Source: Bilabrum cf. latius (taxonomy: Eukaryota). Taken from it: a stretch of DNA of 64,000 bases. The stretch lies in assembly GCA_965178125.1 (NCBI GenBank), contig OZ237751.1, positions 744,001-808,000 on the forward strand, given 5' to 3'. Within the stretch, counting starts at the first letter, position 1. Each line of letters opens with the position of its first letter. The notes beneath the pieces are model-generated. The model had not been told where the DNA came from. It saw nothing but the letters and a program-made list of their open reading frames with translations, and did no database searches. Shown in pieces: positions 1 through 63,737 of the stretch. The position numbers were made by a program, and so were the translations under genes.

Positions 1-2902
1 CGCCAGACGCAGGATGCGAGTCGTACATGAGCACCTGCACGCCAACGCCCTCCGCCTGGGACGCGAAGGTGCGCTGGGCCTCTGCCAGCACGCCGGGCAC
101 GAGCGGGTTGGGTCTCTTGGTGATCTTGAGCCTGCCGGTCTCGATGTGCTGTAGGTCTAGCACATCGTTGAGGGTGGTCTGCATGGCCTCGGCGGCAGCA
201 TCGAGCGAGGGCAGGGTCTCGTCGAAGATCTCCACGGCCTCTCTCAACAGCTGAGTAGGTCCATCAGCAAGACCCAGGACAAACGCCGCGCCCATTTTGT
301 CATCCGTAACATCGCCAACAACTTGAACGTTGTCCGACCCTCGGCGTCGAGAACCGCGTCGTCGAATTGGATCTGTGGTGGATTGACGTCCAACTTGTCT
401 AGCGGCTATCTCTTTTTGCTGCAGTGCTGCTTCCAGTGCAAGCCTCACCGTCTTGGCTCCCTCCTGGCAGAAGTCTAGCCCTAGCACTACTGAGTTCAGA
501 GGCACCCTGCACTCGTGCGACAGGAACCGAACCCTCGACTGCAACGCAGCCCTCTGTTTCTCCGAGATGTCCATGGCGCGCTCCAGGTCATGCGATTGCC
601 TTGCGTACACATACACGCATCCAAGCAGCAGAGTTCTGAGAGCAAACATTATGAAACGAAGTGTAATGTCGACCGCAACGCTGGTGCGAGTGTACTCGGC
701 AGCCTTCACTCGAAGAAGTTGATCCACCGGTGCAGCCATCGTTGCTTCGGTGCAAGATTCTGACAGGGAGTCAACACCGGCAATCCTGGCCTGTGCGCAA
801 GCGCACAGCTCTGTCATGCGGAAGAGCGTCGCAGACATGATGGGAGTGAACAGCAGCTGCTCTGCCAGAATGAGCACGCATAAAGTCTTCAGCACCGAGC
901 CCAGCTGCGCAGATCTGTCCATACCGGCCTGTACGAGCGGGGATACTGACATTCGAATACCCTTTTGCACCCCGTCTTGCTTGCGCATCGACAGCAAATG
1001 CCTGGCCTCCATAGTTCCTGAACCCTCGCCACAGCAAGCGAGGGATCGCCGAGCAGTCACACATATCTCATGAAAGCTCTGGATGCCTTTCCATTCGAAA
1101 CGGCTCAGCGCAGCCCTCGATTCCGACAGAGTACTTTGAGTTGGAGGTGAAGGCATAGAAATGCGGACAGCTGGCCGACACCACTTCGGTAACCTGCCAC
1201 AGCAGCAGCACAAGCACCATCGCGCCAGGCGGGCCTCAACATCAAGAAGCTGACAAGGCCTATCGGCTCGCTTGTCGTTGTACCAGCGGTATACCTCCAT
1301 AGAAGCGTCCTGCGTCGCTTCATCCATGCCTCGGCTAGGTGTTGCCAACAGGACCAGGACACATACGACAGACACGGGGAACATGACGAACACACACACG
1401 CAGAATAGAGCCCAAAGAATCGTGAAAGCGCTCACGATGCTGAGGTCAAGAGCGCTAGGCACACTTTGGGATGCGATAGTGGCGTTAATGCCGCATAGCG
1501 TTAACTAGCCGTCATTATGAACCCCAATAGGCAACGCATTCGCTCGATTCTGGGGTGACATGGGACGCAGGACTTCAAGGAGGCTAAATACTAGCTGCGT
1601 CTCATCCAGCGAGGCAGTGCGCCCGCACAGGTGATTCTGATCCGCAAGAGCGACGCGATTCCAGAGAGGATTCAGATCAATAGACTGGCCATCGCCACCG
1701 TCGCCGCTACTATCACCACTGCCTCCGGAGCCGTCGCCTTGGACCATGCAGGCAGCACCGCCGTATCCAGAAGACATGGTCCACAGCTTGTTTGCGTGAT
1801 CAAACCACTGATCTACCTGGTACGCCGACCCATTGAAGTCGGCATTCTGTTCTTGCATATCGTCAATAGCACCAGTGAGCTCTGCCTGTCGTAGCAGCGA
1901 CAGGAACAGCACCGGCCTCCCGTTGCTGCCTCTGATGTCTGTGAGCATAGAGGCGGGTTTACCGGAGTACGTCGCGTTATCCAGACCATCAAACATAGAC
2001 TCCAGCTCCAAGAGTCCAGCGAGGCCCCCCTCCGCCACTGTATAGGACGCAGCGAACCTCGACAAGCCCACCGTCGCCGCTGCACCAAGATAGGCAAGGG
2101 ATGCGATGATGGCGGTTGCGGTGATGCACACAGTCCGACGAGCCTTCAGCTTGAACTCTACCGCTGGACGGGTAGCAGTTGTAGAACCTATAATCATCGA
2201 AATTACGATGGCGACGATGAAGGTCACCGTGGTGGTCCACGGCTAACCGAGCGTGGACTGCTTCAGCAGGTTGATAGACCGAATATCACCGACAGTGGCG
2301 GATTTTCCCGACAGTACCGCTGCTGTAATGGACAAAGAACCGATCAGGTACTGTAGAGGAGACCCCAAGCCGGTCACGATTGGCCCCGCGCCGAGAACAC
2401 CACCGCCAACAGACGTTGGCACATAAAAGAAGTACGACTCGGCCACGAACGCTGTGCATAGTAGCCACATCAAGACTGTCATGAGTGCATGTCGATCCCA
2501 CGTCGAGCAATCGATTGCTACAGACCTTGTCGTTCGATTCTATATCTCAATCAAGAGCAAGGCAGAGCTGCCGCACAACGCGAGTATCGTCATTGCTACG
2601 ACTAGTACCGACGTCGTTCCGATTGCTGTCTGGGCAGTACCAACAGCTTCTAAGTCGATTGAAGCCGATTCAAGCGTTTCTGTATCCCTTGGTACAGCAT
2701 CGGGCATATCAAAGTCGATGCTATAGCCGACGTCATAGCGCCATGTCGTCGAAACGCCAAACAGCGAAGCAATCGAGTCGATCAAGAAGACTGCCCCGAT
2801 CGTGAACGAAATTGCCCCTATAACTATACACCCGGCATAGCTAAATGTTGCCTAGCGCACCATTGTATCAAGCATATCAGCTCTCTCAACACTGGATTGC
2901 AT
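1..2902 (-). CDS. Membrane-bound histidine kinase, paralog A (3' end runs off the window)
   Basis: One frame from gccATG at 2902 (MQSSVERADML) to the window edge, interrupted only by 4 TAGs (2852, 2540, 2243, 1505). It has several TM segments and the H-box RVRFLSHECRVPLNSV (His codon 515-517), followed by TLNDVLDLQHIETG. Colinear with paralog B at 4601-9355. Confidence 0.9.
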
Positions 2903-3008
2903 GGCGGAACTTGATGGGCGACTCCCGCGAAACGATTGGCCTTTGCTTAACAAGCGCCGGCACGTCTCAGTGAATATTCGAAAGACTTAAATTTGGATGG
3001 AGTTCTTG

Positions 3009-3148
3009 TCGCTTAGGTGGGCCTCGAGTGATGAAACAATGAAGACTCAACAAGTGGGCGGTCGCAACCGCTCCGGTTGATCCGATTGGTCGCATCCGCC
3101 CACTTGTTGATCTTGTAAGTGCCACTCAGTGAGGATCTAATTAGGCGA
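3009..3148. repeat. Imperfect palindrome / possible MITE-like fold-back remnant
   Basis: Perfect 15-bp inverted repeat TCAACAAGTGGGCGG (3047-3061) / CCGCCCACTTGTTGA (3096-3110), with degenerate pairing extending outward to about 3009/3148. No TSD identified. Confidence 0.6.
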
Positions 3149-4190
3149 AATCGTCATTGCATTTCTGGTCCATCTGACACTCATCGAGGCGTCCTTTGGT
3201 TTGATGACCTGCACCGACCTGTCACCGGATGTGAATCTGGCTCAAGGTGACGATGACTTGATGAGGGAGGCAGGAAGTGCTGGCTACGGGCTGCACCTGA
3301 CCCCCAGCGTGCCAGACGACTGCCCCGCAGGAACAGCAAGCAGGCAACTATTGTCGGGCATTGATGTGTGCTGCTACATCCAGAAGGCATTGAATATCAT
3401 GTTTGGGGTGGGGATACCTGCCGTGGTGCTGCTGGCAGTGGGAATCCCTCTCGTGTCAGGGATCGGGCTGTGGTGCGTACGATACCGATTGGGGGAACTA
3501 GAAGTGCTAGCAACTCTAGGCTTTCTGATGAACGGATTCAGGCCAGAGACGAACTACTGGGAAGTGGTTATTATGGCACGAAAACTGGCCGTGGTGGCCA
3601 TCACGGTGCTTGTGGAGCCGTGGGGGGTGAGGGTGCAGACGTATTCGGCTCTGGCTGTCATCTTCGCCGCCGGGGTTCTGCGCGCCTTGCACTTCCCCTT
3701 TTCGAACCGTGAGCTAAATGCGCTGGAGCTGACTGCGCTGTGTTGCGCCTTTGTGACGTTTGAGGGAGGCTTGTTCCTCAAAGACCCGAACTCGGGCACG
3801 ACAACTGTGGTTGCGGCTACTGTAATGGTATTCTTCTCGAATTTTGCCGTGTTCTGCTCCGGCTTGTTCGTGATTCGGTCGCAGCTGTGGTCCTGTGCCA
3901 TGAGGTTCTGCCACGCATGCCAGCCGCGAGGGCGCCGCTGGCAGCAACGGCAGGCAGGTAGCCTCAATCCACAGGGACTGGGCAGGCGGCCAGACCCGGA
4001 ACAGTTCTCCTCCCAGCCAGACATTACGACACGCAACCCGTTGAATGCAGCAATTATGGTGCATTAGATGTCGAGTAGTAGCGGCGAAGTCGACGGTGTG
4101 GTTGGCAGGGGTGCTCGAGCTGCTGGGATGAGCGCCAGCGGCAGTAACGCGGACGGCGGGAGGGGCTGGTGCGGGGGCACAGTTCACTGA
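3141..4190 (+). pseudogene. 5'-truncated multi-TM protein (C-terminal membrane domain of protist large surface/TRP-like proteins)
   Basis: Motifs FLVHLTLIEASFGLMTC, GFLMNGFRPETNYWEVVIMARKLAVV and FPFSNRELNALEL. The homologous-looking sequence begins right after an in-frame TAA (3138-3140), upstream of the first ATG (3204), with no N-terminal domain. Reads through TAG 4065 to TGA 4188-4190. Could be a short functional gene instead. Confidence 0.55.
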
Positions 4191-4600: not shown

Positions 4601-7600
4601 ATGATTCAATCCAGTCGAGCAGCGGAATTGAACCGGATGGTCCGAAGAGCAACTTGCAGTGTTGCAGGCTTTCTGCTCTTGTTCATCGTAATTGTCATGT
4701 TTATAGTAACAATTTTAGTTGAGGTTGTGGCAGATGGCTTTCCTGAGGCGACAACATGGCACCAAAGCAAGGCATACTCAGCAGAATTTACAATTCCAAG
4801 CTTGCTGCCCCTTGATGGCTCCAAGTATCCGCATCCGGACGGATTCGTCGGTGGTGTTCAAGCCGGCTAGTCTGCTGTCGCAACTGCGGGATGGCTTGTG
4901 ATCTGCTGGGGCATAGCGGGGTTCGTCGGCAGCTCCGTTCTACTGTGCAACGAAATCTGGAAAAGGCGAACCTTTGCCTCGGACTGCAATGAATGCACCA
5001 GCGAGACAGTGTGGGACAGACATGGCTTAATGACTGTATTGTTGTGGCTGGTTTGCGTAAGTCTCTTGTGCGAGAGCTACTACTGGTACATGCCCCAAAC
5101 TTCTGCTGGAGGAGTCCTCGGCAATGGGGCAGTGATCGCATATTAGCCGTCTGCACAGAGCCAGTACGATCTCTTTGGATCCATTATGTCGGCTTGGGCA
5201 AGAGGGGCCGCTGCTACGGTGGGGGAGATCGCAGTGGCGGACGTGTCTCAGATCGGCACCGTGGTGCAGCTCTGGGCAATGGCGTCAACGATCGCGCTTG
5301 CTCTAGTGGTATCAATGATTATCGGCGCAACAACTGCCGCACGCCCTACTGTGGAGTTTGCACTGAAGCGCAGCAGAGCCATCTGGATCATTGTCGCAGC
5401 GTCGCTGACCGGGTGCATTTACGTGGGGACTGCTGTTGCCCTCGGCACCACCAGGCTGGGCTCATCATTAGCAGTCGCAGACACAGGCGTGCAGGCATTG
5501 GACTATGTTGAGTCACACCTAAGCCAATTGGGCAACGCGACTTACTCCGGTAAACCCGCCTCTATGCTCACAGACATCAGAGGCAGCAACGGGAGGCCGG
5601 TGCTGTTCCTGACGATGCTACGACAGGCAGAACTCACGGAGAGGGAATCCCTCAATGAATCCAGTGTATCATTATTGGGAGCTGCTCGAGCTATATCTTC
5701 CATCGCTGAGCTCGATGCTCGAGGTCACCCTGATCCTGACTTGCTTGTCGCCCCGCTATACAACAGGCAGGCTGCAGGCGACCACCTGCAGTGGTGCATG
5801 TCGTACGCCACACAAGCCGAAGCAGCCGCAGCCCTGTATGCTAAGCATGTCATTCAGAAAGCTGCTGATCGAGGCGTCAATGTTAGTCTTCCTATCGTCA
5901 TTCCTGGTCTCGCAACGACTGGCGCCCCTGATGCCCACACGTACGGCAGGCAAGCGATCCTTGAAATAGAGGCAAATGACAGCTCCGGGTCACAGGCAAT
6001 GTTCGCAATATTTACATTGTTAGGCCTTCCAAACACTATTATTCTACTTTATGTCCTCGTGTTTACTCCCAGTCGCGGCATGGATGAGGCGACCCAAGAT
6101 GCGGCAGCTGAGGTACAAGCATGGGCAGCTGATAGAAATGCACGGGCGGGTCGCAGGTGCCAACTGCTAGACGCAGAGCACGTTTTCGCCTAGTTCGCTA
6201 CATGGACTTGCTGCTGCGGCAAATTGCCACCCATGTGCGCTCCTGCAGTGTCAATTACTGGTCGCTGGCAAGCAGATCGCCACGAGACCGACTGCGGGCC
6301 GTGCAAACCGAATCTTGATGCAACGGCAGCCTTCCACGAGGTCGTCGTGACTTCTGCGCGTGCGGTTTGGTGCTGCGGCTCGGGTATTGCAGGTGCAGAG
6401 GCCCAACATTTCATGTCGCTTCGATCCGACAAGGCAGGCGGTCAACGAGCCTTCCGCTCCACTGTTTCGCCGCTCGTGAAAGCCGGCATGGACAGGGCTG
6501 CATAGCTTGGCTCAACCCTGAAGATCGTAGCTATGCTGATGACTATCGCAATATTTTTGATGAACGAGATCCAATCTAAAGCAACGTTTGATATTATTGA
6601 TGTCTGCACGTGCTCGTACGTCCAAATCGCGGGACTAGAATCCATGTGGGATATGTATCGCTGTCCTGACGCGCTTACTGAACCAGTAGAGCAGTCTATG
6701 GCGGAGCAGGCTAAGATGGGCTTGAACCGGCTCGTGACTGCGGACCTACTCATTCGGATTTTTAGCGTGGCATTGCGTGTTGTTTTTGTGAGCACGGTGT
6801 ATGTGTACGCCCGCCAATCCCGTGAGCTAGAGCGCGCCATGGACATCTCAGAGAGGCAGAGGGCCGCGCTGCAGTCGAGGGTTCGGTTCCTGTCGCACGA
6901 GTGCAGGGTGCCTCTGAACTCAGTAGTGCTAGGGCTGGACTTCTGCCAGGACGGAGCCAAGACGGTGCGTCGTGCTGCCAGCTTGCTTCGCAATAGAGTG
7001 CACAGGCCAGGTCGCCAGCAAATTTCACAAGATGCGATGCCAGGATCTCCGGAATCCGGTGAGCATGCTAGCATTGAAATGTGTACTGAAGTGTCTGGTC
7101 TGCTTCAAGAGGCCGTGGAGATCTTCGACGAGACCCTGCCCTCCCTCGATGCTGCCGCCGAGGCCATGTAGACCACTCTCAACGACGTGCTAGACCTACA
7201 GCACATCGAGACCGGCAGGCTCAAGATCACCAAGAGACCCAACCCGCTCGTGCCCGGCGTGCTGGCAGAGGCCCAGCGCACCTTCGCGTCCCAGGCGGAG
7301 GGCGTTGGCGTGCAGGTGCTCATGTACGACTCGCATCCTGCGTCTGGCGGCAGCTTCACGTGCGACCCTGTGCGGATCCGGGGGGCTCTGTACAACTACG
7401 CATCGAATGCGTTGAAGTGGTCTCGGCCGGACGAGAAGCTGGTGAAGCGTCTGAGCGACCTGCAGGTGCGGGGTCGTGGTGATTCAGCTCAGCGTCCGCG
7501 TATCGTGTTTGGGTCGAGCGAGGTGCCACCTCACCTGTGGGGTGTGTCTGAATGGCAGAAGGCAGTGGGCGGGCTGGGAGAGGACCTAGCAGGTAAGCTG

Positions 7601-9355
7601 CACTCGATAGTGGCATCTAGTAAACAGGGCATGCGTGCACGCATGACAGCCTACGGCTTTGATACCAGTGGAGAAGTAAGTTCAGATCAGTCAACAACCA
7701 AACGAGCTCGAAGAGGTCGTGGAGCGGAGCCCGATGACGGCATCAGTGCTCGATCCATGTCCTCCTCTGTTGCTCCTTTGGATGCCATGGGCTCATCGAT
7801 AGACTCGTGTGCATCGGGGGGCATTTCTGGCGTGTATTCGGACGGGTAGGCAGCTGCACACCAAGGCTCTGTGGATACTTAGCACCAGCCGCCGGGGATT
7901 CGATTCGGAAACATGCCCATGGTACCATCGATGTCGATAGAGGCTGACACTGAGTTGTTGCCTAGTTCAGAGCAGCTAATCGACCCCTAGGTCTAGTCGA
8001 CAGGCGATGGGCCCACCTTGCTTGCAAGCCAGGATGTATCGCATGAATCTGTGGCTCAAATAGCGCCCGACACCATCGATGTCTATGATGGTTTGCGCCA
8101 TGAGTGGCCGTGCCCCGTAGTACAACCGGAGCTAGGCATTCCAAGGCCTCAATCGAGATAGCAGTCAGTGGTTCGTGGAGATTCTAGAGTAGATCGTTCC
8201 GGTGGTGCAGGTCACATCGCGATGCTGCCCACGACGCTTAGTTCGACTTTGCGGCAAGACTCTGACAAGTTTGTGTCTTTGTGGGTGCTCGATGAGGGGC
8301 CCGGCATCCATCGCAAGGACTGGGGCAAGGTCTTCACCCCCTTCGAGACGCTGCACTCGGGGATCCTCACGGCGGAGGGGCAGGGGTCCGGGCTGGGGCT
8401 GGCCATCACGGCGACGGTGATCCGCATGCACGGGGGCTGCGTGGGCTTTTCGTCTCGTGCTGGAGTGGGCAGCGTGTTCTTTGTATGGCTGAGGATGGGT
8501 GTCCAGCCCCCTGGGCCGCATGATCCCGACTCACGAGGGAGTCCAAGAACACGGCAGCTGGACGAGCTGTCCAGTGCTGTAACAAGTGCTGATGGTGCGC
8601 GAGCGCGAGTATCCCAACCATTCAAGGAAGGTGGCACCTTAGGACAAATGCGGGCTTCTACAAGTGCCAGGCCGGCAGTGGAGCCGACCTAGAGCACAGC
8701 GGCAGACAGTGCCACCCAATCGTCGAACCAATCAACCTCAACAAAACGAAGACGGAGGGTCGTCAAGCGCAAAAAAATCTAGCTAGAAAAGAGAGGCTCT
8801 TAGGGGTATAGTGTTGGCACCTCCGAACCCCAACAAGTATCTCGAATGGCGACTGATGATGCTTCGTCTGGAAAGGCACTACCTAGTTCTGCAGTGGACC
8901 AGGGCACCGTCCTTGTGGTGGACGACAGCCGCACCAACCGGCTCTTCCTCTCCCGCATGGTGCGCACCGTGGATCGATCCATTCAGGTGCTCACGGCCAG
9001 CGACGGGCAGGAGGGGCTGGACCTGCTGAGGCAGAGGGCCAGGGAGCAGCAGGCCGAGGAGACTGGTGTTGAGGGTGCTGCTGGCGGTGGCAGTGCGGCT
9101 GCCTTGAAGCCCGTGGTGGATCTGGTGCTGCTGGACTTCTCGATGCCGCGCATGTCGGGGCCTGAGATGGCACAGGCTGTGCGAGGCGATGGGGACGAGA
9201 GGGTGCGTGGGGTGCGGATTGTGGGTGTGACTGGGAATGCTCTGCCGGAGGATCAGGCTTTGTTCCGATCGAGCGGGGCAGAGGAAATTCTTTGCAAGCC
9301 GGTGCGGAGGGCGCAGATCGAGAAGGTGATTGGGTCATTAGTAGCAAGGGTATAA
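4601..9355 (+). CDS. Hybrid sensor histidine kinase, paralog B (multi-TM sensor, HisKA, HATPase_c, receiver), ~1584 aa
   Basis: Eight tracked ORFs in one frame, joined through 13 TAGs, ending at TAA 9353-9355. H-box FLSHECRVPLN, N-box ALYNYASNALKW, G1 WVLDEGPGI, F-box VFTPF, G2 GSGLGLAI. Receiver motifs VVDDS, LVLLDFSMPRMSG, VTGNA, LCKP. Confidence 0.93.
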
Positions 9356-9532: not shown

Positions 9533-12500
9533 TCAATCTCGGTCAATGTATGAATCGTCACTATCGCTCTCCTCCGAGTCGCTGCCTAACTCGGACACGC
9601 CTGCATCTGCCTCTTCGGCGTCGCCATCAAAACCACCGATGGCGTCGTCTTGTGACTGCATGCGTGGGTGCTGCAACAACAGCACCTTCGCCTACTCCGC
9701 CGTGACCTCCTCTACCTCCTCATCATCGTCATCTGAGTCAATGCCGCTCCCCTGTCCCGCATCCTCTTCGTCGTCGGCTTCTAGCCGAGCCTTACCACTG
9801 GTTGCTTCACCCTCATCTTCATCTTGGCCGCTTCGCTCGTCCTCATCCTCCATCGCATGCTGGCCTGAGGCATCCTGGAGCTGCCTGCTCTAGAGCCCAC
9901 TGGATCTAGATCGCCTTGGGAAGGCCACTGCACTCATCAGTGCGACCGATGCTGGACCGAGCCCTAGCAGATAGTTGGCGTCCTGAGCCACACGGGCTTC
10001 GTCGCTGGTAGGCTCGTGCAGGTCGGGCACCTCAGTGTCGCCCTGTGGCTCCGACCTGGCCATGCAGCAGTACAATCGTCGGGACGCCGACTAAAACGCG
10101 GACTGTAGCTCTTCCTCTCCAGAAATCCCGCCCAGATTCTACTGGAGCCATTCAGGCATGGCCGCGAGAAGCAAAATAGCAGGTCGCGAGACGACCAATC
10201 CTTCAGCAAGTGGTCTCCAGCTTCGTTTGCACTCGCTGATAGAATCGTCGACACTGCATTCGCTGTACTGGCTTGACAGCCACATGCAATGGCCGCCAAG
10301 AATGGCCTCCCTGGCGAGAGCGAATTCTGTGCGGGGCTAGCATCCTGTTGGTGTGTCGCACGCTATCAAGCCCCCGCAGTGCAGGATAAGAAGTAGTCCG
10401 TGTACATCCGTTGGCGACAGCCAGGGGAACAAGTTGCGCAGCTCAGATTCCGGCGCAGACGGATAGGCTCTGACAGCGCGGTACATCCCGTGCAGCAGAC
10501 CAGCGAGGAGCCGCACATTCCACCTTGACCCTCCGCGAGGGTCCGTCCAGACGCGAGCAGGCCGCAGCCCGTCTGCTAGTACGCGTGCCCTGCATGCCAC
10601 CCTGGCAGGGTTTGGGATGTACACAGTAGGACTTGAAAAGTCCTTCGTCGTTGATCGCGCTACCACGTCCAGCTCTCGAAACGCCAAACTACCAGTCTAT
10701 GCCATACCTGCTAGATTGGCCACACTGCGGCGATCCACGGCTTGACTGACAAGCTCGATGCCATACTGTACAATACCACCGGATGACCTGCCCATTGCCT
10801 CCTCTCTATCCGCATGGCTCTGGGCAGAGTCAGTCCTCTCCAATTTGGCTGTCTCATCAAGTTCGCTCTTGTCTGACACTGCGACGGTCCTGCTCCCGTG
10901 GAAAGAGGCGTGGGAGGCCTCGACCAGCAGTGGCCCATGCATGCCGCAGACAACTTGCGCTTGACCCCGCAGCACCAGCACTGCCCAAGCCTGCTTGCAC
11001 GGCTTAAAGTACCGAAGCAGGTCGATTGCGTCAGAGCTGCTGCTCACTGCGGACGCGGCGGACGCACCTCGTTGCAGTGATTCCCTGACAAGTTCCATGG
11101 CACGTCGCAGCGCCAGGCCTTCCAAGCCGCGAGACGCGCACGCGCTCATCACAGCAGAAACGACAGCATCCATACTGCTGCTGTCCAAGCCTTCCAAGGA
11201 AAGCTCGCCAGCGTCCGATGGTGACGTTCGAGGCTTCTTCTGGGCAGATGCCATTGCGCTGGCCGTGGGACCACATCTAATCTCGGATCCGCTTCTTCCA
11301 CGCTTGCTGCCCAGAGCGGGGCTGCGTGCTCCGTCCGAAGTTATCGAAGCATGATCTGTGCCGCCGGTCGATTGCCTTCTTTCTCGAGCTATGGCAAGCT
11401 GCCGTACAACATAGTCTGGCCTCTGCATTGCGACATACTGTGCTTTGCTGCCCTGAGCGGTACTGTGCAGAATGACCCTGAGATCGTGCGCTGCTGCCGC
11501 CCGCGTGCGAATCAGTCGATCTGCCAGCCTCGTGTTGCTGTCAATCAGGAAGGAAACATGACCATTCACAGGCGGGAGTATCTCCAGTGTCTCAAAGCCA
11601 CTCGAAAGCAGTCGGTTGAACACGGCAGAAGTTGCCAGGTCGATAGAGACCGAATCGTTCGCGACGAGATCAACGTAAGGTACTCGGTTGCCAACTGCGC
11701 TTCTGCCGCCGGCTGCATCGCGGATGACAGACATGTGTACCGATGCCCGACTCGGCGGACTAGATGCACCCAAAGCCGCTCCCGATGAGCGGGTTGAACC
11801 TGACTGCTACGGGGCCACTTGCCTTTGGAGGTGCCTCAGCACGGAGGAAGTCACCGCCCTGGCTGCAACCAAGGACAAACGCTTGCTCTGCGGGGAAGTG
11901 GCGTCACGGATGAGCCTGGCTAGCATCGCAATATCTGCGGCGCGGTCGTTCAAGCCCGGCTTGACCTGCATAGGATGACCCGCCAGAGCCAGTGCAACCT
12001 GGGCGGCAATCTCGCAGTGGACAGATGGAAGTACATCGTGCAGCCAATCAGTCTTGTGGACCGAAGACGATAATACAGTCGTGTATCCCAGCATGCCTGC
12101 GGTTCCTGGGGGCGACTCTGCAGGCCAGGACGGCACTATGGCTGCGGCGAGCTCACTCGAAGCGGCAGGTGCAATCCCGCTGGTGATCGCATCGATCTGG
12201 GCTGCGTTGCCTCGGCTTGCAAGTGGCACCAATCGAGCCAACCTATGCGATGCGCTGGCAGTTCGGCGGCTGTCAAGTCTGAAGGCCAACTCGTGCGAGG
12301 TCCTCACGTCTGCCGGCACTGCTACGGCGGAGCCTGCTCCTCGCGCAGGAGCAGCCGGCATGTTGGCACTCCTTGGTGGACTCGAAGGCAAGAAGGCTCC
12401 AATGCCACCGATCGTGCCTAGAGCCGAGTCCTCGCTGCCCTGCCCAGCTGCAGAGGCCGATGCGGCGTCTGCATCAGCCCGTCCCACTTGTGGCTAGGTT

Positions 12501-51300: not shown

Positions 51301-51693
51301 GTGAGCGTGGACATGGCAGCGTGCCAGAGCGATCTACTAGGGTTCTGCTATGGAGCAGGGGCAGGTGAATTGCGTGGGTCCGCTGGAAGTTTTCTTTCCA
51401 AGGACAAGCAGTCCGTGCTCGCCACTCTCCAGCCCGGCAAGCAGTACTACGTCGTGTCGTCGGAGAAGAGTGGCGGCGATGCGTTTGCTAACATGGACGA
51501 CCCGGCTGCCATGACCACGCACGCACACCGAGACGGGGCATGCATCATGGTACACGCGGGGCCGGGCAAAGGCACAGTGGCGGGAGGGGTGCGCAGGGCA
51601 GCGGGAAGCGAGTCGTTTGAGGTGTCCAGGTAGATCCACGGGGCGTATGGGCCGCTGAACCTGCTGCTGGGTGCGCCTCGGGAATCGGAGTAA
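48334..51693 (+). CDS. Secreted GH59 galactocerebrosidase-like glycoside hydrolase with N-terminal ricin-type lectin-like region, ~1119 aa
   Basis: Signal peptide MRLIQLVSALCSLQVVIA. GH59 motifs FDGVGGLAAVGGARLLYEYPEQQREEILDLMF...QILKTEQPGDG, FDYAGVHNE and YWNSE. Seven in-frame TAGs; TAA stop at 51691-51693. Confidence 0.88.
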
Positions 51694-51971: not shown

Positions 51972-53495
51972 TCAGTCGTGCATGCACCCCTCCACACCGC
52001 CCCGACTCGCGGGCAGCGGACCGATGAAGAAGCGCTGCCTCCCGTCGTACGCAAATGACCCTCTCGGGTATGCCGGTATCATCTCCTCTCCGCTATGACG
52101 AGTGCCATCGTCTGCTGCTCTCCGGTCGACCTGATTATCAGTGCCTGGCACTGGATCAATGTCCATGTCAGCCGCTGAAGGAGAACCTGCCGCGCTACCG
52201 ACCCGCGGCATCGCGCTGCTCCAGAACCGCAGCACGGAATCAGAGACAGACAGTAGCCGCCCCCAGATGCCCCCGAATAGGTGGTGCATGGGGATGGCTT
52301 CCACCGAGCTGGCCAGGCCGAGAGGAACAGCATCGGCATGCACGCCTGCAACTGCGGCAGAAGCAGCAGCGGCTGCCGTGTGTTTATCCCTCACCTGTCC
52401 CTCCCCTGCTGATGCTCGGCTTGAGGCTTGTGCAGTAGCTTGTGCAGTAGCTTGTGCAGTAGCTTGCGCAGTAGCTTGTGCGGGTGCTTGCAGCGGCGGT
52501 TCCTGCTGCGGACCTGCCTGCATTGGCTCAGCTGAGTCTTGCCTTGCTCTCAGGATAGAAGCCTCTTTCGCGTGCTACTCCTCCAGTAGCAGCCTCCTGA
52601 GCTCCTGGTCGATGGCAGTCACGGCCTCCAGGCAGCCGGTTGCAACCGCAACCGTGGAGTCGTCTTTCATTCCCGATGGGATGTGGGTGTCCCTTGGGTT
52701 GATGCGAATCAGAGACCCATTACTGCGGGTAGCCATAGACTCTCCCGTAACTCTCACCGTTGGAACCGCTGTGCCGGCTCCGATCTCCACGACGGCCACC
52801 CGATGCTCGCCCTGAGCACCTGCTCGGACCGCCTCCTTGGCCCACTCTTTGAACCGCTCGTGCTGCTCGTCGGTTCTAGTCGAGACCCAGTCTCCGTCAC
52901 CAAACATTAGCACGTTTGGTCGTGCAATAAATTCCGAGTCTCCGCACGGACACACCGGAATGGAATCGGGAGAGGCTCGAAAGGACTCCATGTCCACGTT
53001 CGGACGCACTTGGTCTGCCGATTCGATGCGATGTCCCGCCTCGCCGCACACCCATGGGTTGCAGCACTATATGTAATGGATAGACCCGTGACACTCGACT
53101 ATTTTATCATTGTCCCACCCTGATTTCTGCCAGTGACCATCCACGTTGCTCGTAAAACTAAACATACTAGCGTTTAACAGCTTTCCCCATTCTCGAATGA
53201 TACCAAAACCAGCGTGCGGGTCGATATTCCTATATTGGTGCAACCTATGACCGTAAAATGCCCAGGCTAGTTCAGGATCACTCGCAAACCATGCTGGGTT
53301 TGCAGCACGCTGGAAGCTAATTCCTCTATTCTTGAATGCAGGATAAGCATTCCAAAAACCCTCTCTCCCGCGAAAGTCTCTTAGACCAGAATCGACGCCC
53401 ATACCTGCTCCACTGGTGACAAGGACGTGTCTAGCAGTGGCAAGAAGCCGGGCGGCTCTACGAACGCTCAATGACACATTCGCAGAGGCGGCCAT
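51972..53495 (-). CDS. NAD-dependent deacylase, Sir2 family, with low-complexity C-terminal extension, ~507 aa
   Basis: GAGMGVDSGLRDFRG, FTSNVDGHW, ECHGSIHYI(TAG)C, ARPNVLMFGD, EIGAGTAVPTV and LIRINP. Two TAGs; TGA at 51972-51974. Contains a short AQAT repeat near 52425-52480. Confidence 0.92.
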
Positions 53496-53711: not shown

Positions 53712-56621
53712 ATGGATGAGGATGCGGAGTCTTTCGAGTACGAAGCATCGTTTGGGGGGACTGCAAGCATCGAAGAAGGGTGCAGACCTTTTGAATTGGA
53801 AACAGATGTGACCGTCTCAACTCTGAGCCAGGTTGAGGCTGATTGCGAACTGATAAACCAGTGCGTTCCAGGAATCAATGCGGCATCTTTTGCAGCGTCA
53901 CCTTTATCAAGCTTCGTTTGGCTCAGTATTTCGTTTCGTCGCCTGAAGCTCGGTAGTGAGCAAGCCATTGCTCTGGGGCTCTACCCGGAGTTCCCATATA
54001 TTGCAATTCGCCTCACTTTCAACCGCTCGTACGAGCACTAGACACACAGCATGTCAGAGCCAATGGTAAGCCCTGACGACATTATTCAGACAAAAGACCC
54101 TAGTAAGCTGGGTGAGGGCCTGGATTTCGCCCCGTATCACTGCCGATGCGGCCTTGCCGGTCTCATCGCGGATCGCCTTGGTACCTTTCTAAGCGGCAGG
54201 CCCAAGGCGGCCGCCACGGCCCACACAAAACCAGGCTTAAAAAATGAGAATAAGCATATCTCATGGGTGGATATCTTGTTTGGGCTCAATCGGCACCGCT
54301 CCGAATCCAGGTTGGATTGGGGGGAAAAGACGGCTGCTGGAGCTTCGGGCGCCACTACCAAGGCGCACAAGTACGAAGGCAAGCACGAAGGCAAGCACGA
54401 AGGCAAGCACAAAGGCAAGCACGAAGGCAAGCACAAAGGCAAGCGCAAAGGCAAGCGCAAGGGCAAGCTGTCTAGGGCCGCTGATTAGGGAGCCGAAAAG
54501 GGTGGCCAAAGCCGCACAAAAGCGGCAAGCAGTGCCGCTGGATCGCACGGTGGCACTCGGCAGCACGATATAGGTCACGATACTGGCGGCTTCGATGGAG
54601 ACTTGCACCGTAATCTCAGCGGGTGCATGCACACGGATCTGCTGTGGCCAGTGACTCGAGCGCATGCCCTGACTTCAGTTGAGGCAGGACCTCATAGCCT
54701 TGCCGACGCGTTAGCGTCCCAGATAGAGTCGGGTGCGAGCACCTGCGGGTTCTCATACGCCGTGATGCCTCGGTGGGTAGCTGCCGATATAGACGGAGCA
54801 ATGGCTGCTTTTCTCCATGAGCATGGGGATGCAGGAGTGGCTGCCGAGCCAGCAATAGAAAAGTACAGTCCTTCTTCAGCGGCTGCAGGTATGTCCAGTA
54901 TGGGATCCTTTGGAGAAGACTCTTTCCCTTTCGGGTATGCGAGCATGCCGCACCCCGAGGCCATGGCAAAGGTTGCTCGCGCGCAAGGTGGACGCTCATC
55001 TGAAAGCAAGTACGCACGCCACGGCGCAGATCCGTCGTTAATGTCTAGTCCTAGTTCGGCCGCTGTACCAGGGTAGAGTGCCGGCGCTGGATAGAGTGCT
55101 AGTGCTAGCAAGCATGTTGCAGCAGATGGCTCAGGAACTGTTCACACAGCGGCACCCGCTCTGACTGACGAGCCACCACTGATGACCCGCGCTCTGTCCG
55201 GTTCCTCCGAGCGCTCGACAGGCCCCGTCGTGCACCCCATGTTGCTGAGGACACAGATGGAGCCATATCTGTCAACCTTCAACCCGCTCGTATCGATCTA
55301 TCTGTTTGTTGAAGCGGTTGTGCAGAATGCCCACCGGTGCTGCCTCAGCTGCGGGATACCCCTGCGGATGTCAGGCATGAAGCCGTCCATTTGTGGCAGC
55401 TCGTTGTGCACGCATCGCTACACCGAGCTGGGGCTGGGCATGACGCTAGACAGCATGGTGCTGCAGCAGCCACAGGTGGTGGACCTCTTGATCTCTCTGT
55501 TCTATTCATTCCTTGCGAACAGCCACCGCAAGGAACTCAGGTGGGACGCTGACATGATGGCGCAGGTTCTCAGCCACGACAAAGCGAAGAAAACAGCGTA
55601 TGCCGGGCCTAGCACTAGCGCGGCGACTGGGGGGGCCAGCTCTGGTGAGGGCCCGACTCGTGCTGCCGTCCTAGCCAGCATAAAGAAGGACAAGCGCAGG
55701 CACGCCAAGCTCAAGTCGATCGATGTAGAAGAGGCGGCTGCGCGGCTCCTCCGTGCACTGGACGCGTGTCCGAGCCTCGGACAATTGCAGGTGCTAGCTA
55801 AAAAATATGGGCTAGATGGCCTAGTGGCCAAGCTGAATTAGTTGGACCCGTTGATAGTGCCGATTCTGCGCATGCTCGTGGTAGACACGCCCGCACACAT
55901 CCGGGGCCTGACGCTGGGCGGCGAGACTATTCCGGGTTGCGACAAGGGATGGGTCTTTGTGTTCAAGGCAGGGGAGCTGAGCAGGGAGGCAGAATTCCAG
56001 GACATGCGCGAGAGACATGGGTCGTTTTTCGCTTTCCACGGGAGCCACGCGGCCAACTGGCACGTCATTCTTAAGACGGGGCTCAAGAACATGTCTGGTT
56101 CCAGGTACATGTCGGCTGGGGCCGCATTTGGGTCCGGCATCTACTTCGCAAACAGCTCCAGCCTTTCCTCTTGCTATGCGCGCGAGGAATCAACTTGGCC
56201 GAGCTCCATGTTTGCCATGGACCCCAAAACCTACAAGAGTCTACCGCATGCAGCAACGCAGGGCGGACCAAGAACGGAAAAGCGTTTGCGGGGACTGGCT
56301 AGGGAGTGCAAGGGCGTTGCCAAGTCATCTCCAGACATCGCCGCTGTTTCGGTGATGGCGCTGTGCGAGCTGATTCCGGTGGGCGAGGGCGAGACTGACT
56401 ACTCGTATGGTGGTCACTTGCCAAAGGAGGGGGAAAGCAGCAGAACAAATGCTGCCGGCGTTCATGTGCTGAAGGACGAGAGCAAAGTGGTGACTCGTTA
56501 CCTCATTGTTTCACCTGGTGGGACTCCTGGCCACAGCATTGACTTGCAGCCGACTGAAGAGTACTACTCTGTAGCATTGCACGACCTTACGAAGCGAATG
56601 GTTGCAAAGGTTCAAGCTTGA
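53712..56621 (+). CDS. PARP6/PARP8-like mono-ADP-ribosyltransferase, ~969 aa
   Basis: C4 finger CLSCG...KPSICGSSLC, VVDLLI, and the catalytic FAFHGSHAANWHVILKTGL...GAAFGSGIYFA. Five TAGs; TGA at 56619-56621. Confidence 0.88.
54369..54467 (+). repeat. 12-bp coding minisatellite (KHEG/KHKG/KRKG), ~8 copies, inside the PARP gene
   Basis: AAGCACGAAGGC-type units are directly visible. Confidence 0.9.
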
Positions 56622-56826: not shown

Positions 56827-56924
56827 AGACTGGGCCGAGTGAGCCCAGCGCCTCACCGTCGCAATACAGTTGAAATCTTCTTCTTCTCCGAATCCAATTA
56901 AAGGCTACACATGTGCTGCGACAT

Positions 56925-59510
56925 TCAGATTCTCATAGCAGCTGCGACACACCGAGGAAGAGACCAGAGCGACAGTCCGTTGGAGCCATTCCGCAAAATA
57001 CTGCCGGTGCCAAGCTCCCTCCAGGCAGCGCCATCAGCGGATGGGCGAGTCCCGCCTCCATCCGCCGATTCGAAGGCAGCATTCATAGCAGCCGCCGCAG
57101 GAATCCTCCCTTCACTGGTACCAGTCCATGATTCTACATCAGTTCGAGATACTGTAGCGCACGCAATCTCGCACTGGACCGATGCTGCGGCAGCTCCATC
57201 GCTCGTTGCAGCTGTCGCACCATCTGGCTGCAACACCCGCACACGGAGCATCACAGCATCGCTCCATTGCATGGACGCCTCGCAATCATCACTAGTTACG
57301 CCTAGTGCAAAGGCTCGAATTTCTGCCAGGAAACTGCGCAGCGAACCGCCCCCCGACGATGACGGAGCAGGTGCCCCAGACGGAGCTTGCTCCCCGTCGC
57401 AGACCCAGGCAAAGCACCTCGCCGCAGCGCTCACAGCAGGGCCACTCACGGAAGAGGCAGAGCCAACGGCACTATCAGGTTCGAGTTTCTTTGAATCATC
57501 CTGTTCCATGGGCGGCTGAGAGTCTGTCGACGGCTTTGAACAAGGCGGGCCGACGATGCAGCTAGCAGCGAATGCAGCGCTCCGCACGATGCTCCCAAGC
57601 ACCTGTGCGGCTTCCAAGGCAATCATTGATCGACGAGTTGCTGGCTCAAGCCCTGCTCCCGCGAGCTTGGACCATTCGACGGGATCAGATTCTGCCTCTG
57701 CAGCTCCACGTGCTGGGCGAACAAGACCGAGGTCGATGGACCGGAGGAAAGGCGCATCCGTGCAGCGCTGGTCCGTTCCGGGCCACATTTCTTTGCCTTC
57801 TTCTTCTACACGCGCTCGCTTACTTGAGGGGCTTCCATCGGTTCGTGGCTAGGAGCTTGCGCTTGAACCTGCCCGGCCGCACAGCCCCGCCCATGTGAGC
57901 AGCTCTATCCGAGCAAGTGCTCTGACAGGAGACGGCACTCCCTCCGGTTGCATCCCCACCAGGTGCATGCATCGCGCCCATCCACTCGTCACACATTCGT
58001 CCCGAACCTTCTGGTGGAGCACGAGTCCCATCGGTACCACCGCTGCCTAGGCTGATGGGGCGTGAGCCGCAGAAGCAGCAGAAGCACCACCACCTGCACC
58101 CACTGCCAGAGACGCCGAGCCGCCCGCCATTCTTGCAATGCTCGGAGTGGTTGGAATCGGCGCACGAAGCTGCATCGCGGCGCCGATCCCGGAGGGCCTG
58201 GTTCCGTACGCCACCACCCCGGAGCATGCCCTCCGCGCCATGGCCAGTTCTCCTTCGGCCCCTCGCTGGCACACGGCCCCCGCCTCCAAGGCGAGCACAG
58301 GGTCAACGGAACTGCTGGTAGACTTGCCACTCGCGATCACGAGCATGGACTGCGCCCGTCCACTCGTCACACTTATCACCTCCTCGCTGCTGAGAGGGCT
58401 GGACAGATCCACCCACGCCCCATGCATGGCCAGTGTCCTTGCCTCTACTCCGTCAGGGCAGAATGCGAGGCCAGTCCCCACACCCGCATCCTGGGCAAGG
58501 AGACCCTCGTCCACGTGCGGGAGCAGCGGCACAGTGGTCCCTGGTGCCTCAAACATCCCGGTTGCAACCGCGTGCCTGCTGAGCTCCCTGAGCAGCATCG
58601 CCTAGATGCCCTCCCATGCGCCCGCCCGCGCTGTCGCAAGTGCCGATTCGTCCAAGTGGTCTGCAGACAACACGCCGTCGTCATCGTCATCATCATCGCC
58701 GCCGTCCTCCATTGCTTGTCCATCTCCTGCGCCCGGCTTCGCCTCTGCTCCACCGCTTGCACCTGTGCTGGCGGGGGCCTGTCCCGCGCTGCCACCCCCG
58801 GATATGCTGCATCGCGCCGCTTCCTAGAGAACTAAAAAGCTCGCAGAGTCCCATGATGCGGTTGTTTCACCGAGCAGCTCAGTTTCCGGGTGCCTTTTTG
58901 GTGGAGTGACGGAAAGCTGCAGCTCGAGTGCGAACGACGAGTGCCCGATTGTGATCTCAATTTTCCGGGGGCTCTAGCCATTTGGCACGTCGGAACTAGC
59001 TGAGTCGCTCTCTTCCATTTCTGCCGAGCCGACTGCAGCACCACCGTCATCCACTGCGGCAGCTGACAGCTCCAGTTCGTGCCCCTCTGCAATAAGGGAT
59101 TCTGTCGCTCTCACCACGGGCTCCAAGGCAATAATCGCTGCTTGCCGTGACATTTCGTCCTGAAATATGGATCGCACTGCCTGCAACACGGCTTGAGCTC
59201 CAACCATTCCCTGTAGACCGACCTTCATGGCATCGTGTCTGGCTGCGATTGCTGCAACAGACGATAGCTCTGCGAGGACCTGCCGCGATATTCTCCCATC
59301 TGGCGGTCCCCACGGGCTCATAATGGTAGACAGCTGCGCAAGGGCACGGCGGATTTGCTTTATTTTGTGCCTCGAGCGGTGAATCGCGAACAAGCTGTCG
59401 CTGGCCGAAACGGTGGACCCAACGCGGCCACATCCCGACGGACCGTCCACAATAACTGCGACATCTGCTAGAATACTGCGCAATGCGTCGCCTATTGTCT
59501 CTACTGCCAT
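56925..59510 (-). CDS. Hypothetical Ala-rich protein, ~861 aa
   Basis: Four tracked ORFs in one frame. ATG 59510 (MAVETIGDAL) to TGA 56925-56927 through 5 TAGs. Confidence 0.72.
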
Positions 59511-59673
59511 GAGTTTTACCTGAAATTGTTGAATAGATGTAGACCAAGTGCCTGCCAGCCGCTTCTGAATCTGCGTGCGGTGCACCCCGGAAGGGATTTC
59601 AAGAAAAAGAATAAATGTAAGAATTGGACACAGTGTGAGAACAAACATAACTCCTTAGCACACAATAGAATTG

Positions 59674-61713
59674 TCAACCATTCGTCAGCGCCCTCGGTCC
59701 CTTGGTGGCCATCTCCTTGCCCCAGCGGACCACCTCGGCCTCCCGCAGCCGCTGATCGAACGCGAACTGCGGACTTGTAAGCCGCTTCGTGTAATCCTTT
59801 GCGACAAGCTAAGCTGGGGTCACGCTTGCAGAAGACACCCCACCACCGCTGCCCCCTCCAGAGCCCGCAGAGGCGCGCTACGACTTGGCGGCCAGCGAGG
59901 CGTCGTACTCGCGACCATAGCCCCAGAACCAGTCGGACGAGTAATCGTCGAGCGGAACGAATGACGTCACTACAATCCGATCCCCAAACGCCCGCCCGGA
60001 CAGCTCCTGCTGCAGCTTCACCGCGGTTGCAACCGATTCCAGCTCGAGGAACAGCGAGCCCATGCCCGCCACCTGCATGCGCGGTCCCCTCTTTCGGTCG
60101 ACTGCCGCGAGGAATCGGTCCCCTGTAACCGACTGCACCACGGACTTGCCTCCAAACACCGTCATGGTCTCCGTGTCGGGTTCGCCTAGCCTGCACCTCT
60201 CGTCCCACGCGTGGGTGGCGGCATCGTCCCAAGCAAAGGGGGGCAGCCGGCGGGCCCAAGTGGCGCGCGGTGCCTTCCAAGACATCAGCGCGGCGCCGCT
60301 CTTGGCGGACCCTCCCCCGCTGCCGGCCTCCCACCTCCTCCTCTTCTTGCCTAGCTCTGCCCCAGCAATACCATCCGCTCCTTGCCCCGCCCTCGCACCA
60401 GCAACATCACCATCACCATCAGCCCCTGCTTCAGTCTCCTCTCCCTCACGCTCCTCTCGCCAGCCCTTGAGCAGCTGCTCCACGTGCGCGACCGCGTCTT
60501 CCAAAATGTCGTCGAATAGAGCCGCATCTTTGATCTGCGCATCGCTCGCTAGATTGTGCAGCGCGAGGACTCGAGTCGACGCGCCCACCAGGCTGCGCTG
60601 GGCCAGCCCCGGCACACCCCTCAGGTGCAGTGGCACTGAGGGCCCCTCCGCGGACGTGGGCTGCAGCTGTTCCCTGAGCGCAGGGGTGAGCGAGTCCGCG
60701 GGGGCACCCGCCCTGCCCGCCCGCCTGTAGGTCTCTACCCATGGGGATCCCGGCTCGGGGCCTCCCAGGAGGACGTGTGCCTGGGCGGGCTGCGGGGGAC
60801 GCGGGGGCAAATCGAGCACGCCCTGGTCCTGGTGCAGCTCAACGGATACCTTGGGTTCCCCCTGGATGCCTCTGATGGGAACCCCGCCAGCGACTGCCGC
60901 CGCGGCGCATGCCGCCACCATCGAGGGCACGCCAGGGAGGCCAGTCCCGAAGGCAGATGCGGCGCAGGCTGCCACTGCAGTGCTCTGTTCCGGGGCCAGT
61001 CCCAGGTTCGGATCCCGGAGGGCGGCCCGCCGCTGCAGCAGGGATTGCACGGCGGCACCCGCTTCCTCCCGGGGAACAAATGCCTCCCCGGTGCGCACCA
61101 TCGAGGGGAGGTGGGCCTGGGCCTGTACCGCGGCGGAGGATGCAGCCGACTGAGAGGACGAAGTGGGCGCTTGCATTCCCGTGGCCATTCGAAGGAGCGG
61201 ATTGTCAGATGCAGCCGCTGCTGAGGCCGCAGCAGAGCTTAGCACCATGGTGGGAGCACCAGCATCCTGCTATGCTTTGCCTGCAGGGCCCATGTCGTAC
61301 TCTTTGGTTCGCTGCACTCGAATGAGGATGCCGGCGATTTTCAACCCACTAAACGATATGGCCACTGAAGCCGCCAGCGAATGGGTAAATTCTACAAAAC
61401 GGAACGTTTGGTCACTTCTACCGGTCGACTGCACGTCAATGACCGGGCCAGGTTGCTGGAATAGGCCTGTGCCAACCAGCAAAGCATTGAAGACGGAACG
61501 AATCACAGCATCGTGCATGTCAGGTGGCGCCCCGCCAACGTAGACTCGCCTTGCTTCTCGAGCACACACTTGAGCGGCGGCGGCTTCAGCTCTCTGCCTT
61601 TCAGCCCTCTCGGCGAGCATTTGCTGCACTTTATACTTCATGTCATCCGAAATCATTGGAACTTGGGCAGCCGGTGCCGTGCCAGCGGGGCCAGGCAGAT
61701 CACTTGATGACAT
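59674..61713 (-). CDS. Divergent U2AF65 (U2AF large subunit)-like RRM/UHM protein, ~679 aa
   Basis: RRM1 ARRVYVGG...FRFVEF...FSGLKIAGILIRVQRTKEY. The UHM is split into STRVLALHNL...FDDILED and GMGSLFLEL...LSGRAFGDRIVVTSF. Three TAGs; TGA at 59674-59676. Confidence 0.75.
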
Positions 61714-62055
61714 AGTTCACACTAGCAGGCGAGAGCAATCAAGTATACGCGACCTGCTTTCAAGATTGCAAGAAGTTGCATCGCTGCCAATCCCGTGCTA
61801 TCATTGTAACGTGCAGGTTATTCAGACTGCCAGATTCGTAAAATGTGGCATGCACGGGACCATCCTCAGTACTACAGAAATATTTAGAATAGTATGATAC
61901 AATGGCTGTAGTAATCTCCCACACTAGATGAAGTAGGCCAGAATCCACCCGATTTCAAGAAAATCAGAATTGGCAACTCGGAGCCATTCGGGGGAAATCC
62001 ACTGCTGGTCGGGAATATCAAACCTTGCAGTCCCCTCGCCGAGATAGCCGGAATC

Positions 62056-63737
62056 ATGAGCAGAAACTCGCGGCAGTGGCCTGTGACAAGTTTTGGGTGT
62101 TCGCCTAGGTTTGAGCCGACCAGTTATCAGCGCTCTGGCGACACGGAACCGGGACCAGAAACACGAGGCCACCTCGACTTGACTCGGTCCTCCCACAATC
62201 GCGCTGTTCAAGTCGGCATGGTAAGATCATCTCGATACGTGAAACAGAACTAACATGAAGTTTCTGTGGTTCGTAGTATGTGTCGAAGGCCCATGGAAAC
62301 TAGCGTGTGCCTACCATCTCCTTGTTTTTGCAGCAAGCGTTCGGCTCTTTCCAGCAAAGAGAAGTTTCTGACTACGACAAGGCGTTCCCCAAAATGCGAG
62401 CTACTAGTAGGGCAGTGCATCCTTCTGATGTCATGGGCGTGCCGCAGAAGTTTGTCCAATCCATTCAACGCGGCATGGAAGCAGCCACAACCACAACCTT
62501 GCGACCGCAGTCAACTTCGGCTACCGCCGCGCGGCACAGCCCGACTCACTTGCAACCAACAGTGTCGAGTGCGAGACGCCGCCAGCTCGCTGTCTCCAGG
62601 CGAAGGTTCCTTGAGAGCACAGGGAGGGTGCGCCCGTCCTCGGCAGCGACCAATGCCGCCACCGCCACCGCCGGGACGAGGAGCCCGTCGTCCAGGGCCT
62701 CTTCGGCCGCGGGTGACGCGGGGAGGCTGAGCTCTAGCAGCGCGTGGTTGTCGCCTGCCACGGTGCAGGGAGATGCCGGCGCTGTACCGGAACTGGAGCC
62801 GAGCGAGCAGCTGCAAAGGTCGGTCTACGCCACGCAGTCAGGCGCCAACCGCCCCCACCCTCACTCGTCACACACCTTTGGCAGGATGGCGGTGGACCTG
62901 GCGGCCCCCGAGGCTGAAGAGCCGGGCCCCGGGGCGTACTACCCCGAGTGGGCCGTCCCCGGGGGTGGTGGGGTGGCCACTCTGGCAGCCGACTGCTTCT
63001 CCTCTACCAGCCGAAGGTACGCCATGCGGGGCACCATTGGGTTCGGCAAGAGGTGGTGCACGGACGGAGCGAGAAATGCAGCCGTGCCTGCGGGGACTTA
63101 CGTCAGTAATGACGCAAGGGCGCATCCGAGTCCCCACAACTATGACGTCATGGGAAGTGAAGCGGCAATGAAAGCCAGGAAGGGCTGGAGGCCGCCGCCA
63201 CCAGACGCCATGCAGGCCACCAGAGCCAGGGCCAGGGTCTCAGCAATCGCCAGGAAGGCGATCGGGCTGGGGCCTGTCGCTACGGAACATGCTCCGCGCG
63301 GCGCCGCGGCTGCAGTGGTGGCAGCGCTCCCAGCCTCGCCCCTCGGCTGCATATCGCAGGATGGTGACCCGATGGAAGGCGCAGGCGGTGGGGCGGCGGG
63401 CCTTGTCACAGACACAGGCACCGGGACAGGCACAGGCACAGGCAGCGGGCGCGCCCTTGTTGATGATAAGCTGCCTGGCAAGCTGCAAGGACAGGGGGCC
63501 TGGGCGAGGCTTGGGGTGCCGGAACTGTCTTTGGCTGCAGAGAGTGATAGCAGGGGTACAGGGCCTACAAGAGTCCGCGAGACCGCTGGGAAGGGGGATG
63601 CAGCGCGTGCTGCGGCCGTTCCGGTTCCGGCCGACTCGAAGCAGGAGGAGCTGCGGCGCGTGCAGGCGGAGCTCGACCGAGCCAGGCGCGAGGTAGCGGC
63701 TTTGGAGAAGGCTATGAAGTAGAATTCGCGGTATTGA
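62056..63737 (+). CDS. ODF3/SHIPPO-repeat-like protein, ~522 aa
   Basis: Exon 1 62056-62220, intron 62221-62333 (GTAAGA...TTTTTGCAG), exon 2 reading through TAG 63720 to TGA 63735-63737, which is followed by TAA. Motifs EPGPGAYY, PSPHNYDV and FGCSPRF. Confidence 0.6.

Follow-up and report, generated by a model that had tools for sequence, protein, structure and literature searches.

Eukaryotes nearly always change the meaning of UAA and UAG together, since one modified-wobble tRNA and one eRF1 pocket read both codons. Two papers describe codes in which UAG alone has become glutamine (Gln), with UAA and UGA kept as stops: in Iotanema spirale, a fornicate, in Protocruzia tuzeti, a ciliate, and in two lineages of phyllopharyngean ciliates (PMC5304391, PMC11687900). 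The same papers report UAG as leucine (Leu) in the rhizarian exLh and some ciliates and as serine (Ser) in Scotinosphaera, again with UAA kept as a stop. For Amoeboaphelidium protococcarum, an aphelid and thus a member of the sister group of Fungi, citing papers, among them these two, give a code in which both UAA and UAG specify Gln (PMC5304391, PMC11687900). Outside eukaryotes, crAss-like and Lak phages are reported to read TAG as Gln (code 15). Here we analyzed a window of 64,000 nucleotides (nt), positions 744,001 to 808,000 of contig OZ237751.1, the genes of which are interrupted by in-frame TAG triplets. An earlier note on this DNA had proposed that UAG encodes Gln and that UAA and UGA remain stops, and our analysis upholds the proposal: we put the probability that UAG, formerly a stop, now specifies Gln while UAA and UGA still terminate (a table-15 type code) at just under 90%. 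This estimate, made from sequence, draws on open reading frame (ORF) statistics, a paralogue pair, conserved Gln columns, a syntenic orthologue, TAG positions shared with relatives and letters that are identical in four studies. The literature summary of the note, in which a change of UAG alone is rare and is known as Gln in Iotanema and some ciliates and as Leu in a rhizarian, agrees with both papers (PMC5304391, PMC11687900).

The G+C content of the window is 58.5%. ORFs of at least 150 amino acids (aa) were collected in six frames, under the standard code and with one stop codon opened each time. The standard code yielded 106 ORFs with a sum of 24,229 aa and a maximum of 647 aa. Opening TAG doubled the sum to 48,288 aa in 151 ORFs, the largest of which measured 4523, 1931, 1738 and 1591 aa, and the maximum stayed at 647 aa when TAA alone or TGA alone was opened. 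With TAG as a sense codon 17 uninterrupted gene models could be drawn; the spliced RAD51 gene was added afterwards as the 18th (Table 1). The coding frames of the 17 models contain 132 TAG, no TAA and no TGA in 18,009 codons (7.3 TAG per 1000), and RAD51, with 340 codons and no TAG, leaves the total of the 18 models at 132. This recount is slightly lower than the about 135 breaks counted earlier by hand. The zeros for TAA and TGA follow from the way in which the models were built. Off-frame rates inside the genes are 3.0 and 3.9 per 1000 for TAA, 15.3 and 21.8 for TGA, and 9.6 and 7.7 for TAG. Since the in-frame rate of TAG is close to its off-frame rates, there is no counter-selection on TAG in the coding frame, from which TAA and TGA are excluded. 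The chance of finding a frame of 4423 codons without TAA and TGA at the off-frame rates is, by our own arithmetic, about e^-81.

Several protein domains continue across TAGs. The GH59 protein aligns with mouse GALC in one frame over residues 212-710, crossing TAG334, TAG462 and TAG580, and the catalytic domain can therefore be made only if these TAGs are translated. The PH domain (residues 102-201) contains two TAGs at residues 140 and 157, and the sirtuin and kinase domains likewise continue across TAGs in frame.

The 18 models end in TGA in 12 cases and in TAA in 5, the same counts as obtained before, and one gene leaves the window. All 5 ORFs that end in TAA reach another in-frame TAA or TGA 2-16 codons further on; in kinase 2 the next in-frame stop follows 8 codons past the TAA. 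Kinase 2 reaches its TAA 7 residues past the receiver domain and the RING protein its TAA 25 residues past the RING; the ends of the GH59 protein and of its orthologue on the metagenome contig L001 lie a few residues apart. These ends bear on the alternative that UAA and UAG both encode Gln (table 6) and that TAA is merely rare in a GC-rich genome. The two codons usually change jointly (PMC5304391, PMC11687900), and on the + strand of the whole window TAA triplets (254) are outnumbered by both TAG (572) and TGA (873). However, the 17 models contain 228 CAA and 571 CAG as in-frame Gln codons, and since CAA is thus 40% as common as CAG, a sense TAA should be expected dozens of times in frame, and none was seen. 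Moreover, 5 of the 17 complete genes end in TAA with a backup stop close behind, and opening TAA as well lengthens ORFs marginally (e.g. from 1930 to 1945) and merges none. A joint reassignment is therefore highly improbable.

The residue encoded by UAG was investigated with the two hybrid histidine kinase genes, which an all-against-all comparison of the gene models identified as the sole paralogue pair. They share 416 identical residues at 890 aligned positions. At the nine sites with TAG in one copy, the other copy has CAG four times, an Arg codon three times, TGG once and TTG once, and the sites with CAG opposite TAG are those in the best-conserved contexts. Kinase residues 1-1200 were run with HMMER against all 1.84 billion representatives, which gave about 25 family-specific matches, all of them fragments of 63-460 aa. 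At TAG90 of kinase 2 all three covering family fragments (26-32% identical) have Gln, and at TAG857 all six do (29-68% identical), giving Gln in nine of nine cases over the two family-conserved columns; the window paralogue has Gln at both. At TAG182 one of three family fragments has Gln. The earlier claim that TAG also aligns to CAG in internal repeats did not hold: in the Q-rich repeats two TAGs align to each other and the third copy has a deletion there.

Contig L001 (4918 nt, 56.6% G+C) carries a divergent PEBP-GH59 gene pair as found at 47102-51693 of the window. Its GH59 orthologue is identical to the window protein at 668 of 1088 positions (61%), and the PEBP orthologue shows 51% protein identity. 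The GH59 gene of L001 forms one frame of 1128 codons solely with TAG as sense, containing 14 TAG and ending in TGA; the longest standard-code ORF on this strand comprises 237 aa. One TAG is present in the PEBP orthologue, which also ends in TGA. Comparison of both gene pairs revealed 17 sites with TAG on one side only and 2 with TAG on both. The residues opposite the 17 one-sided TAGs are Gln in 5 cases, Lys, Leu, Arg and Ser in 2 cases each, and Thr, Val, Phe and Asp in 1 case each. Gln is 8.9-fold enriched (Fisher p=0.0002; codons 3 CAA and 2 CAG), and none of the other residues opposite these sites reaches significance (Lys p=0.064, Leu p=0.38). As a calibration, Gln or TAG stands opposite 4 of 7 window TAG sites in the L001 orthologues, compared to 25 of 54 ordinary Gln codons. 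In addition, P0030, which is 93% identical to the 4423-codon protein, has Gln at TAG2470, with identical surrounding residues. A rough BLOSUM62 score, summed over 85 aligned residues and calculated without the generic-kinase rows beyond P0065, gave 56 for Gln, 22 for Glu, -13 for Lys and -172 for Leu.

Relatives of the window genes in a collection of 15 billion proteins appear solely as short fragments. Fragments that are 87-96% identical stop directly ahead of window TAGs, for instance P0024 before position 462 and P0036 before position 90; likewise P0030 stops directly ahead of TAG2668 and P0031 (88% identical) directly ahead of TAG2940. Since the fragment ends coincide with window TAGs, the relatives have a standard-code stop at the same places. 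A RAD51 fragment, P0194, is 96.8% identical to the window RAD51 and lies on a contig of 7906 nt; it ends with ...GELAER, directly ahead of a conserved Gln that the window RAD51 and its human counterpart have in common, and the codon following this end would probably be a TAG. P0194 and the GH59 fragments P0029 and P0192 are each listed with a longest contig of 7906 nt, which suggests that the order RAD51-PEBP-GH59 is conserved, too. A metagenome scan with the 4423-aa protein gave no match. Judged by these alignments, TAG-broken genes are common to a clade of some depth, with 59-96% protein identity to the window.

To exclude artefacts, contigs of four runs from four studies (X1, X5, X6 and X8) were compared over 47000-57000. 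Over these 10 kilobases (kb) the runs differ at one letter, 56762 A>T in an intergenic repeat, without indels, joints or changes at TAGs. X1 and X6 are DNA-like, with long or tiling contigs. Those of X5 and X8 end between genes, with a depth varying gene by gene; X8 contains the sirtuin gene only (11x), extending 70-90 nt past the ORF on either side, and the contigs of both runs span the whole sirtuin ORF with no differences. Our guess is that X5 and X8 are RNA. If they are, the transcripts would keep their TAGs (2 in the sirtuin, 7 in the GH59 and 3 in the PEBP gene), and we guess that these genes are intronless. That the TAGs are never translated, being assembly errors, edited positions, intron sequence or marks of pseudogenes, is barely credible. 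Nothing was found that speaks for it, although it is a guess that X5 and X8 are RNA, and the letters of four studies are identical at the TAG sites over 10 kb, domain alignments cross TAGs, and relatives with 61-96% identity have TAGs at the same positions. Furthermore, all 132 breaks are TAG and none is TAA or TGA, unlike what pseudogene decay would produce.

Several points weigh against UAG being read as Gln with two remaining stops. The in-frame zeros for TAA and TGA are partly circular, since these triplets delimited the ORFs, and the sample is one 64-kb window. No run is on record as RNA, and contigs miss rare variants. The decoding machinery was not seen: neither the window nor L001 contains a tRNA gene, the window gave no Rfam match and has no rRNA, and none of the 18 gene models is eRF1. 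Many TAG sites lie at variable positions: P0024, P0026 and L001 have Lys at TAG334, P0031 has Lys at TAG2820 and Asp at TAG2875, and Gln is found in none of nine family fragments at TAG635 of kinase 2. Nine distant GH59 homologues (30-44% identity) favor Gly, Asp or Glu at the TAG columns; these nine, like the homologues of the GH59 protein and the sirtuin in the PDB, are too distant to fix the residue at TAG. A residue other than Gln, e.g. Lys, Glu, Arg or Leu, could be read from the Lys at TAG334 and TAG2820, from the Arg codons at three paralogue sites and from generic histidine kinases, in which Leu occupies the TAG857 column in 102 of 132 matches. However, Gln alone is enriched opposite the one-sided TAGs of L001 and the window (5 of 17, compared to 2 of 17 for Lys and for Leu), Gln and not Leu is present at TAG857 in the six family fragments and the window paralogue, the three fragments and the paralogue agree on Gln at TAG90, and the BLOSUM62 sum is highest for Gln. 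Another residue is therefore quite improbable.

A further point against the proposed code comes from the gene ends, where TAG was found in the last 20 codons of 3 of the 17 complete genes. These TAGs are located 4 codons from the stop in the gene at 62394-63737, 10 codons in that at 26056-27795 and 18 codons in that at 39735-45509, and in the GH59 orthologue of L001 a TAG lies two codons ahead of the TGA. UAG might thus be ambiguous, Gln inside genes and a stop at some 3' ends depending on context, as in some ciliates (Condylostoma, karyorelicts). However, about 2.5 such genes are expected by chance according to our own arithmetic, so that near-end TAGs are not enriched; TAA and TGA are never found in frame, unlike in codes without a dedicated stop, and a TAA or TGA follows close behind the last conserved domain in every gene where this can be judged. 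A few genes could really end at TAG, but a context-dependent UAG is unlikely overall. Under the favored assignment of UAG to Gln, a tRNA-Gln with the anticodon CUA would decode UAG, by analogy with other reassigned codes, and eRF1 would have lost recognition of UAG while keeping that of UAA and UGA.

The gene models are summarized in Table 1. The DNA is nuclear and comes from a GC-rich, gene-dense and intron-poor eukaryote. The earlier description as intron-poor holds, yet the DNA is not intron-free: as read from the sequence, RAD51 consists of three exons (45706-45765, 45861-45959 and 46145-47008) separated by short GT-AG introns (95 and 185 nt), each of which begins with GTGAG. A phage or giant virus as source is ruled out by the eukaryotic genes, one of them spliced, and a gene organization like that of trypanosomatids is ruled out by the alternating gene strands.

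Table 1. Gene models in the 64,000-nt window, with TAG read as a sense codon.
Feature	Position	Strand	Codons	In-frame TAG	Stop	Remarks
Hybrid histidine kinase, paralogue 1	2..2902	-	966	4		Pfam HisKA; 3' end beyond window
Possible membrane protein, uncertain as gene	3204..4190	+	328	1	TGA	Weak sub-threshold ThrE match
Hybrid histidine kinase, paralogue 2	4601..9355	+	1584	13	TAA	Pfam HisKA, HATPase_c, receiver domain
Large gene without Pfam domain	9533..22804	-	4423	32	TGA	
Arg/Ser/Pro-rich ORF, coding status uncertain	23362..25842	+	826	8	TAA	
RING-finger protein	26056..27795	-	579	7	TAA	Pfam zf-RING_2, residues 515-554
Gene with C-terminal Gln-rich tandem repeat	28469..33370	-	1633	15	TGA	
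Coiled-coil, low-complexity protein	37175..38788	+	537	6	TGA	
PH-domain protein, start undefined	38955..39590	-		3	TAA	Pfam PH, E 2.3e-8; TAG at residues 60, 140, 157
Gene without Pfam domain	39735..45509	-	1924	17	TGA	
RAD51	45706..47008	+	340	0	TGA	Pfam Rad51, E 1.4e-129
PEBP-family protein	47102..48214	-	370	3	TGA	Pfam PBP
Secreted-type ricin lectin + GH59 galactocerebrosidase-like enzyme	48334..51693	+	1119	7	TAA	Pfam GH59, E 1.9e-59
Sirtuin (SIR2 family)	51972..53495	-	507	2	TGA	Pfam SIR2, PDB sirtuins
PARP catalytic-domain protein	53712..56621	+	969	5	TGA	Pfam PARP
Gene without Pfam domain	56925..59648	-	907	5	TGA	
Gene without Pfam domain	59674..61713	-	679	3	TGA	
Gene without Pfam domain	62394..63737	+	447	1	TGA	TAG 4 codons ahead of stop

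RAD51 reached bit scores of 463.7 with human RAD51, about 417 with yeast Rad51 and about 330 with DMC1. In the protein atlas its exon 3 falls among generic RAD51/RadA clusters, in which Ascomycota are commonest, and this placement is uninformative on the taxon. A long ORF antisense to RAD51 (45919-47322) is spurious; such antisense ORFs are frequent in the window, and the one at 23606-24718, opposite the Arg/Ser/Pro-rich ORF, gave no Pfam match. The kinase paralogues (2-9355) are divergently oriented and both have a large multi-pass membrane N-terminal region. Homologues of this region were found only as TAG-fragmented proteins, and it may belong to a lineage-specific sensor family.

The best full-length matches of the GH59 protein in the 15-billion-protein collection are 39-44% identical, and the collection contains no full-length version with TAG as Gln. 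These nearest full-length ricin-GH59 relatives have the same architecture and are intact under the standard code. One full-length relative lies nearest to actinobacterial GH59 clusters in the atlas, with scores below 0.9, and for P0002 the atlas returned bacterial GH59 clusters only, likewise with scores below 0.9; the gene may possibly have originated by transfer.

The tandem repeat of the gene at 28469..33370 has a unit of 96-105 nt and is located at 28613-28931. In the PARP gene, a 12-nt tandem repeat at 54368-54468 encodes a run of Lys, Gly, His and Glu, at which the assemblies of three runs break or differ in copy number. The intergenic stretch 56732-56850 is a dispersed repeat, at which the depth rises to 49 (X1) and 18 (X5); it shows loose ends at the same places in four runs and contains a 33-nt tandem repeat at 56757-56825. 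A region of about 3.7 kb (33400-37100) has no ORF longer than 250 aa in either code and a G+C content of 41-45%, compared to 58% elsewhere. It gave no Rfam match and could have a regulatory or structural role along its length.

Compared to the systems described so far, a code in which UAG alone encodes Gln is of an already known kind. The window shares with Iotanema, Protocruzia and the phyllopharyngeans the same codon change, the same two stops and UAG at Gln positions. The predominant stop differs, being UAA in Iotanema and TGA in the window (12 of 17). Ciliate macronuclear genomes are AT-rich; the window, in contrast, has 58.5% G+C, and its genes form ordinary, long chromosomal arrays on both strands. 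In exLh and Scotinosphaera, too, the change affects UAG only and UAA still terminates, but unlike the Leu of exLh and the Ser of Scotinosphaera, Gln is the residue found opposite TAG (5 of 17; Leu and Ser 2 of 17 each, neither enriched). With crAss-like and Lak phages the window has codon and residue in common; these phages, however, switch the code inside bacteria, and the window contains eukaryotic genes (spliced RAD51, PARP, RING, PH, sirtuin and GH59).

The change from stop to Gln is also reported for Amoeboaphelidium protococcarum, but unlike in this aphelid as cited, TAA is a stop in the window; the comparison was made by description. Aphelids are parasitoids of algae with compact genomes, and Aphelidium insulamus has a genome of 18.9 Mb with a mean gene length of 1664 nt and a mean protein length of 484 aa. 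A small fraction (0.06) of the sampled window words occurs in one run labelled 'algae metagenome' and one labelled 'protist metagenome', which is a hint at best. From such weak hints, an aphelid origin of the window is a live guess at near even odds. A literature search, which had most subscription journals outside its reach, found no GC-rich, non-ciliate code with UAG alone as Gln beyond Iotanema. Tentatively, and with somewhat less than an even chance, the window may represent an independent origin of such a code that is neither ciliate nor fornicate, TGA-dominant and GC-rich, or aphelids of the Amoeboaphelidium type may have UAG alone and not UAA and UAG as Gln. If true, UAG and UAA would in either case be uncoupled outside the groups where this is documented. 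Lineages that split UAA from UAG are natural experiments on the discrimination of stop codons by eRF1, and few are documented; a lineage outside ciliates and fornicates would add a case for which genomic contigs tens of kilobases long exist. Annotation under the standard code breaks the genes of this organism into pieces, also in metagenome bins that contain it. The code is already known if the organism belongs to a described lineage with UAG as Gln, and the finding is weightier if its lineage has not been sampled before or if the code of aphelids has been cited wrongly.

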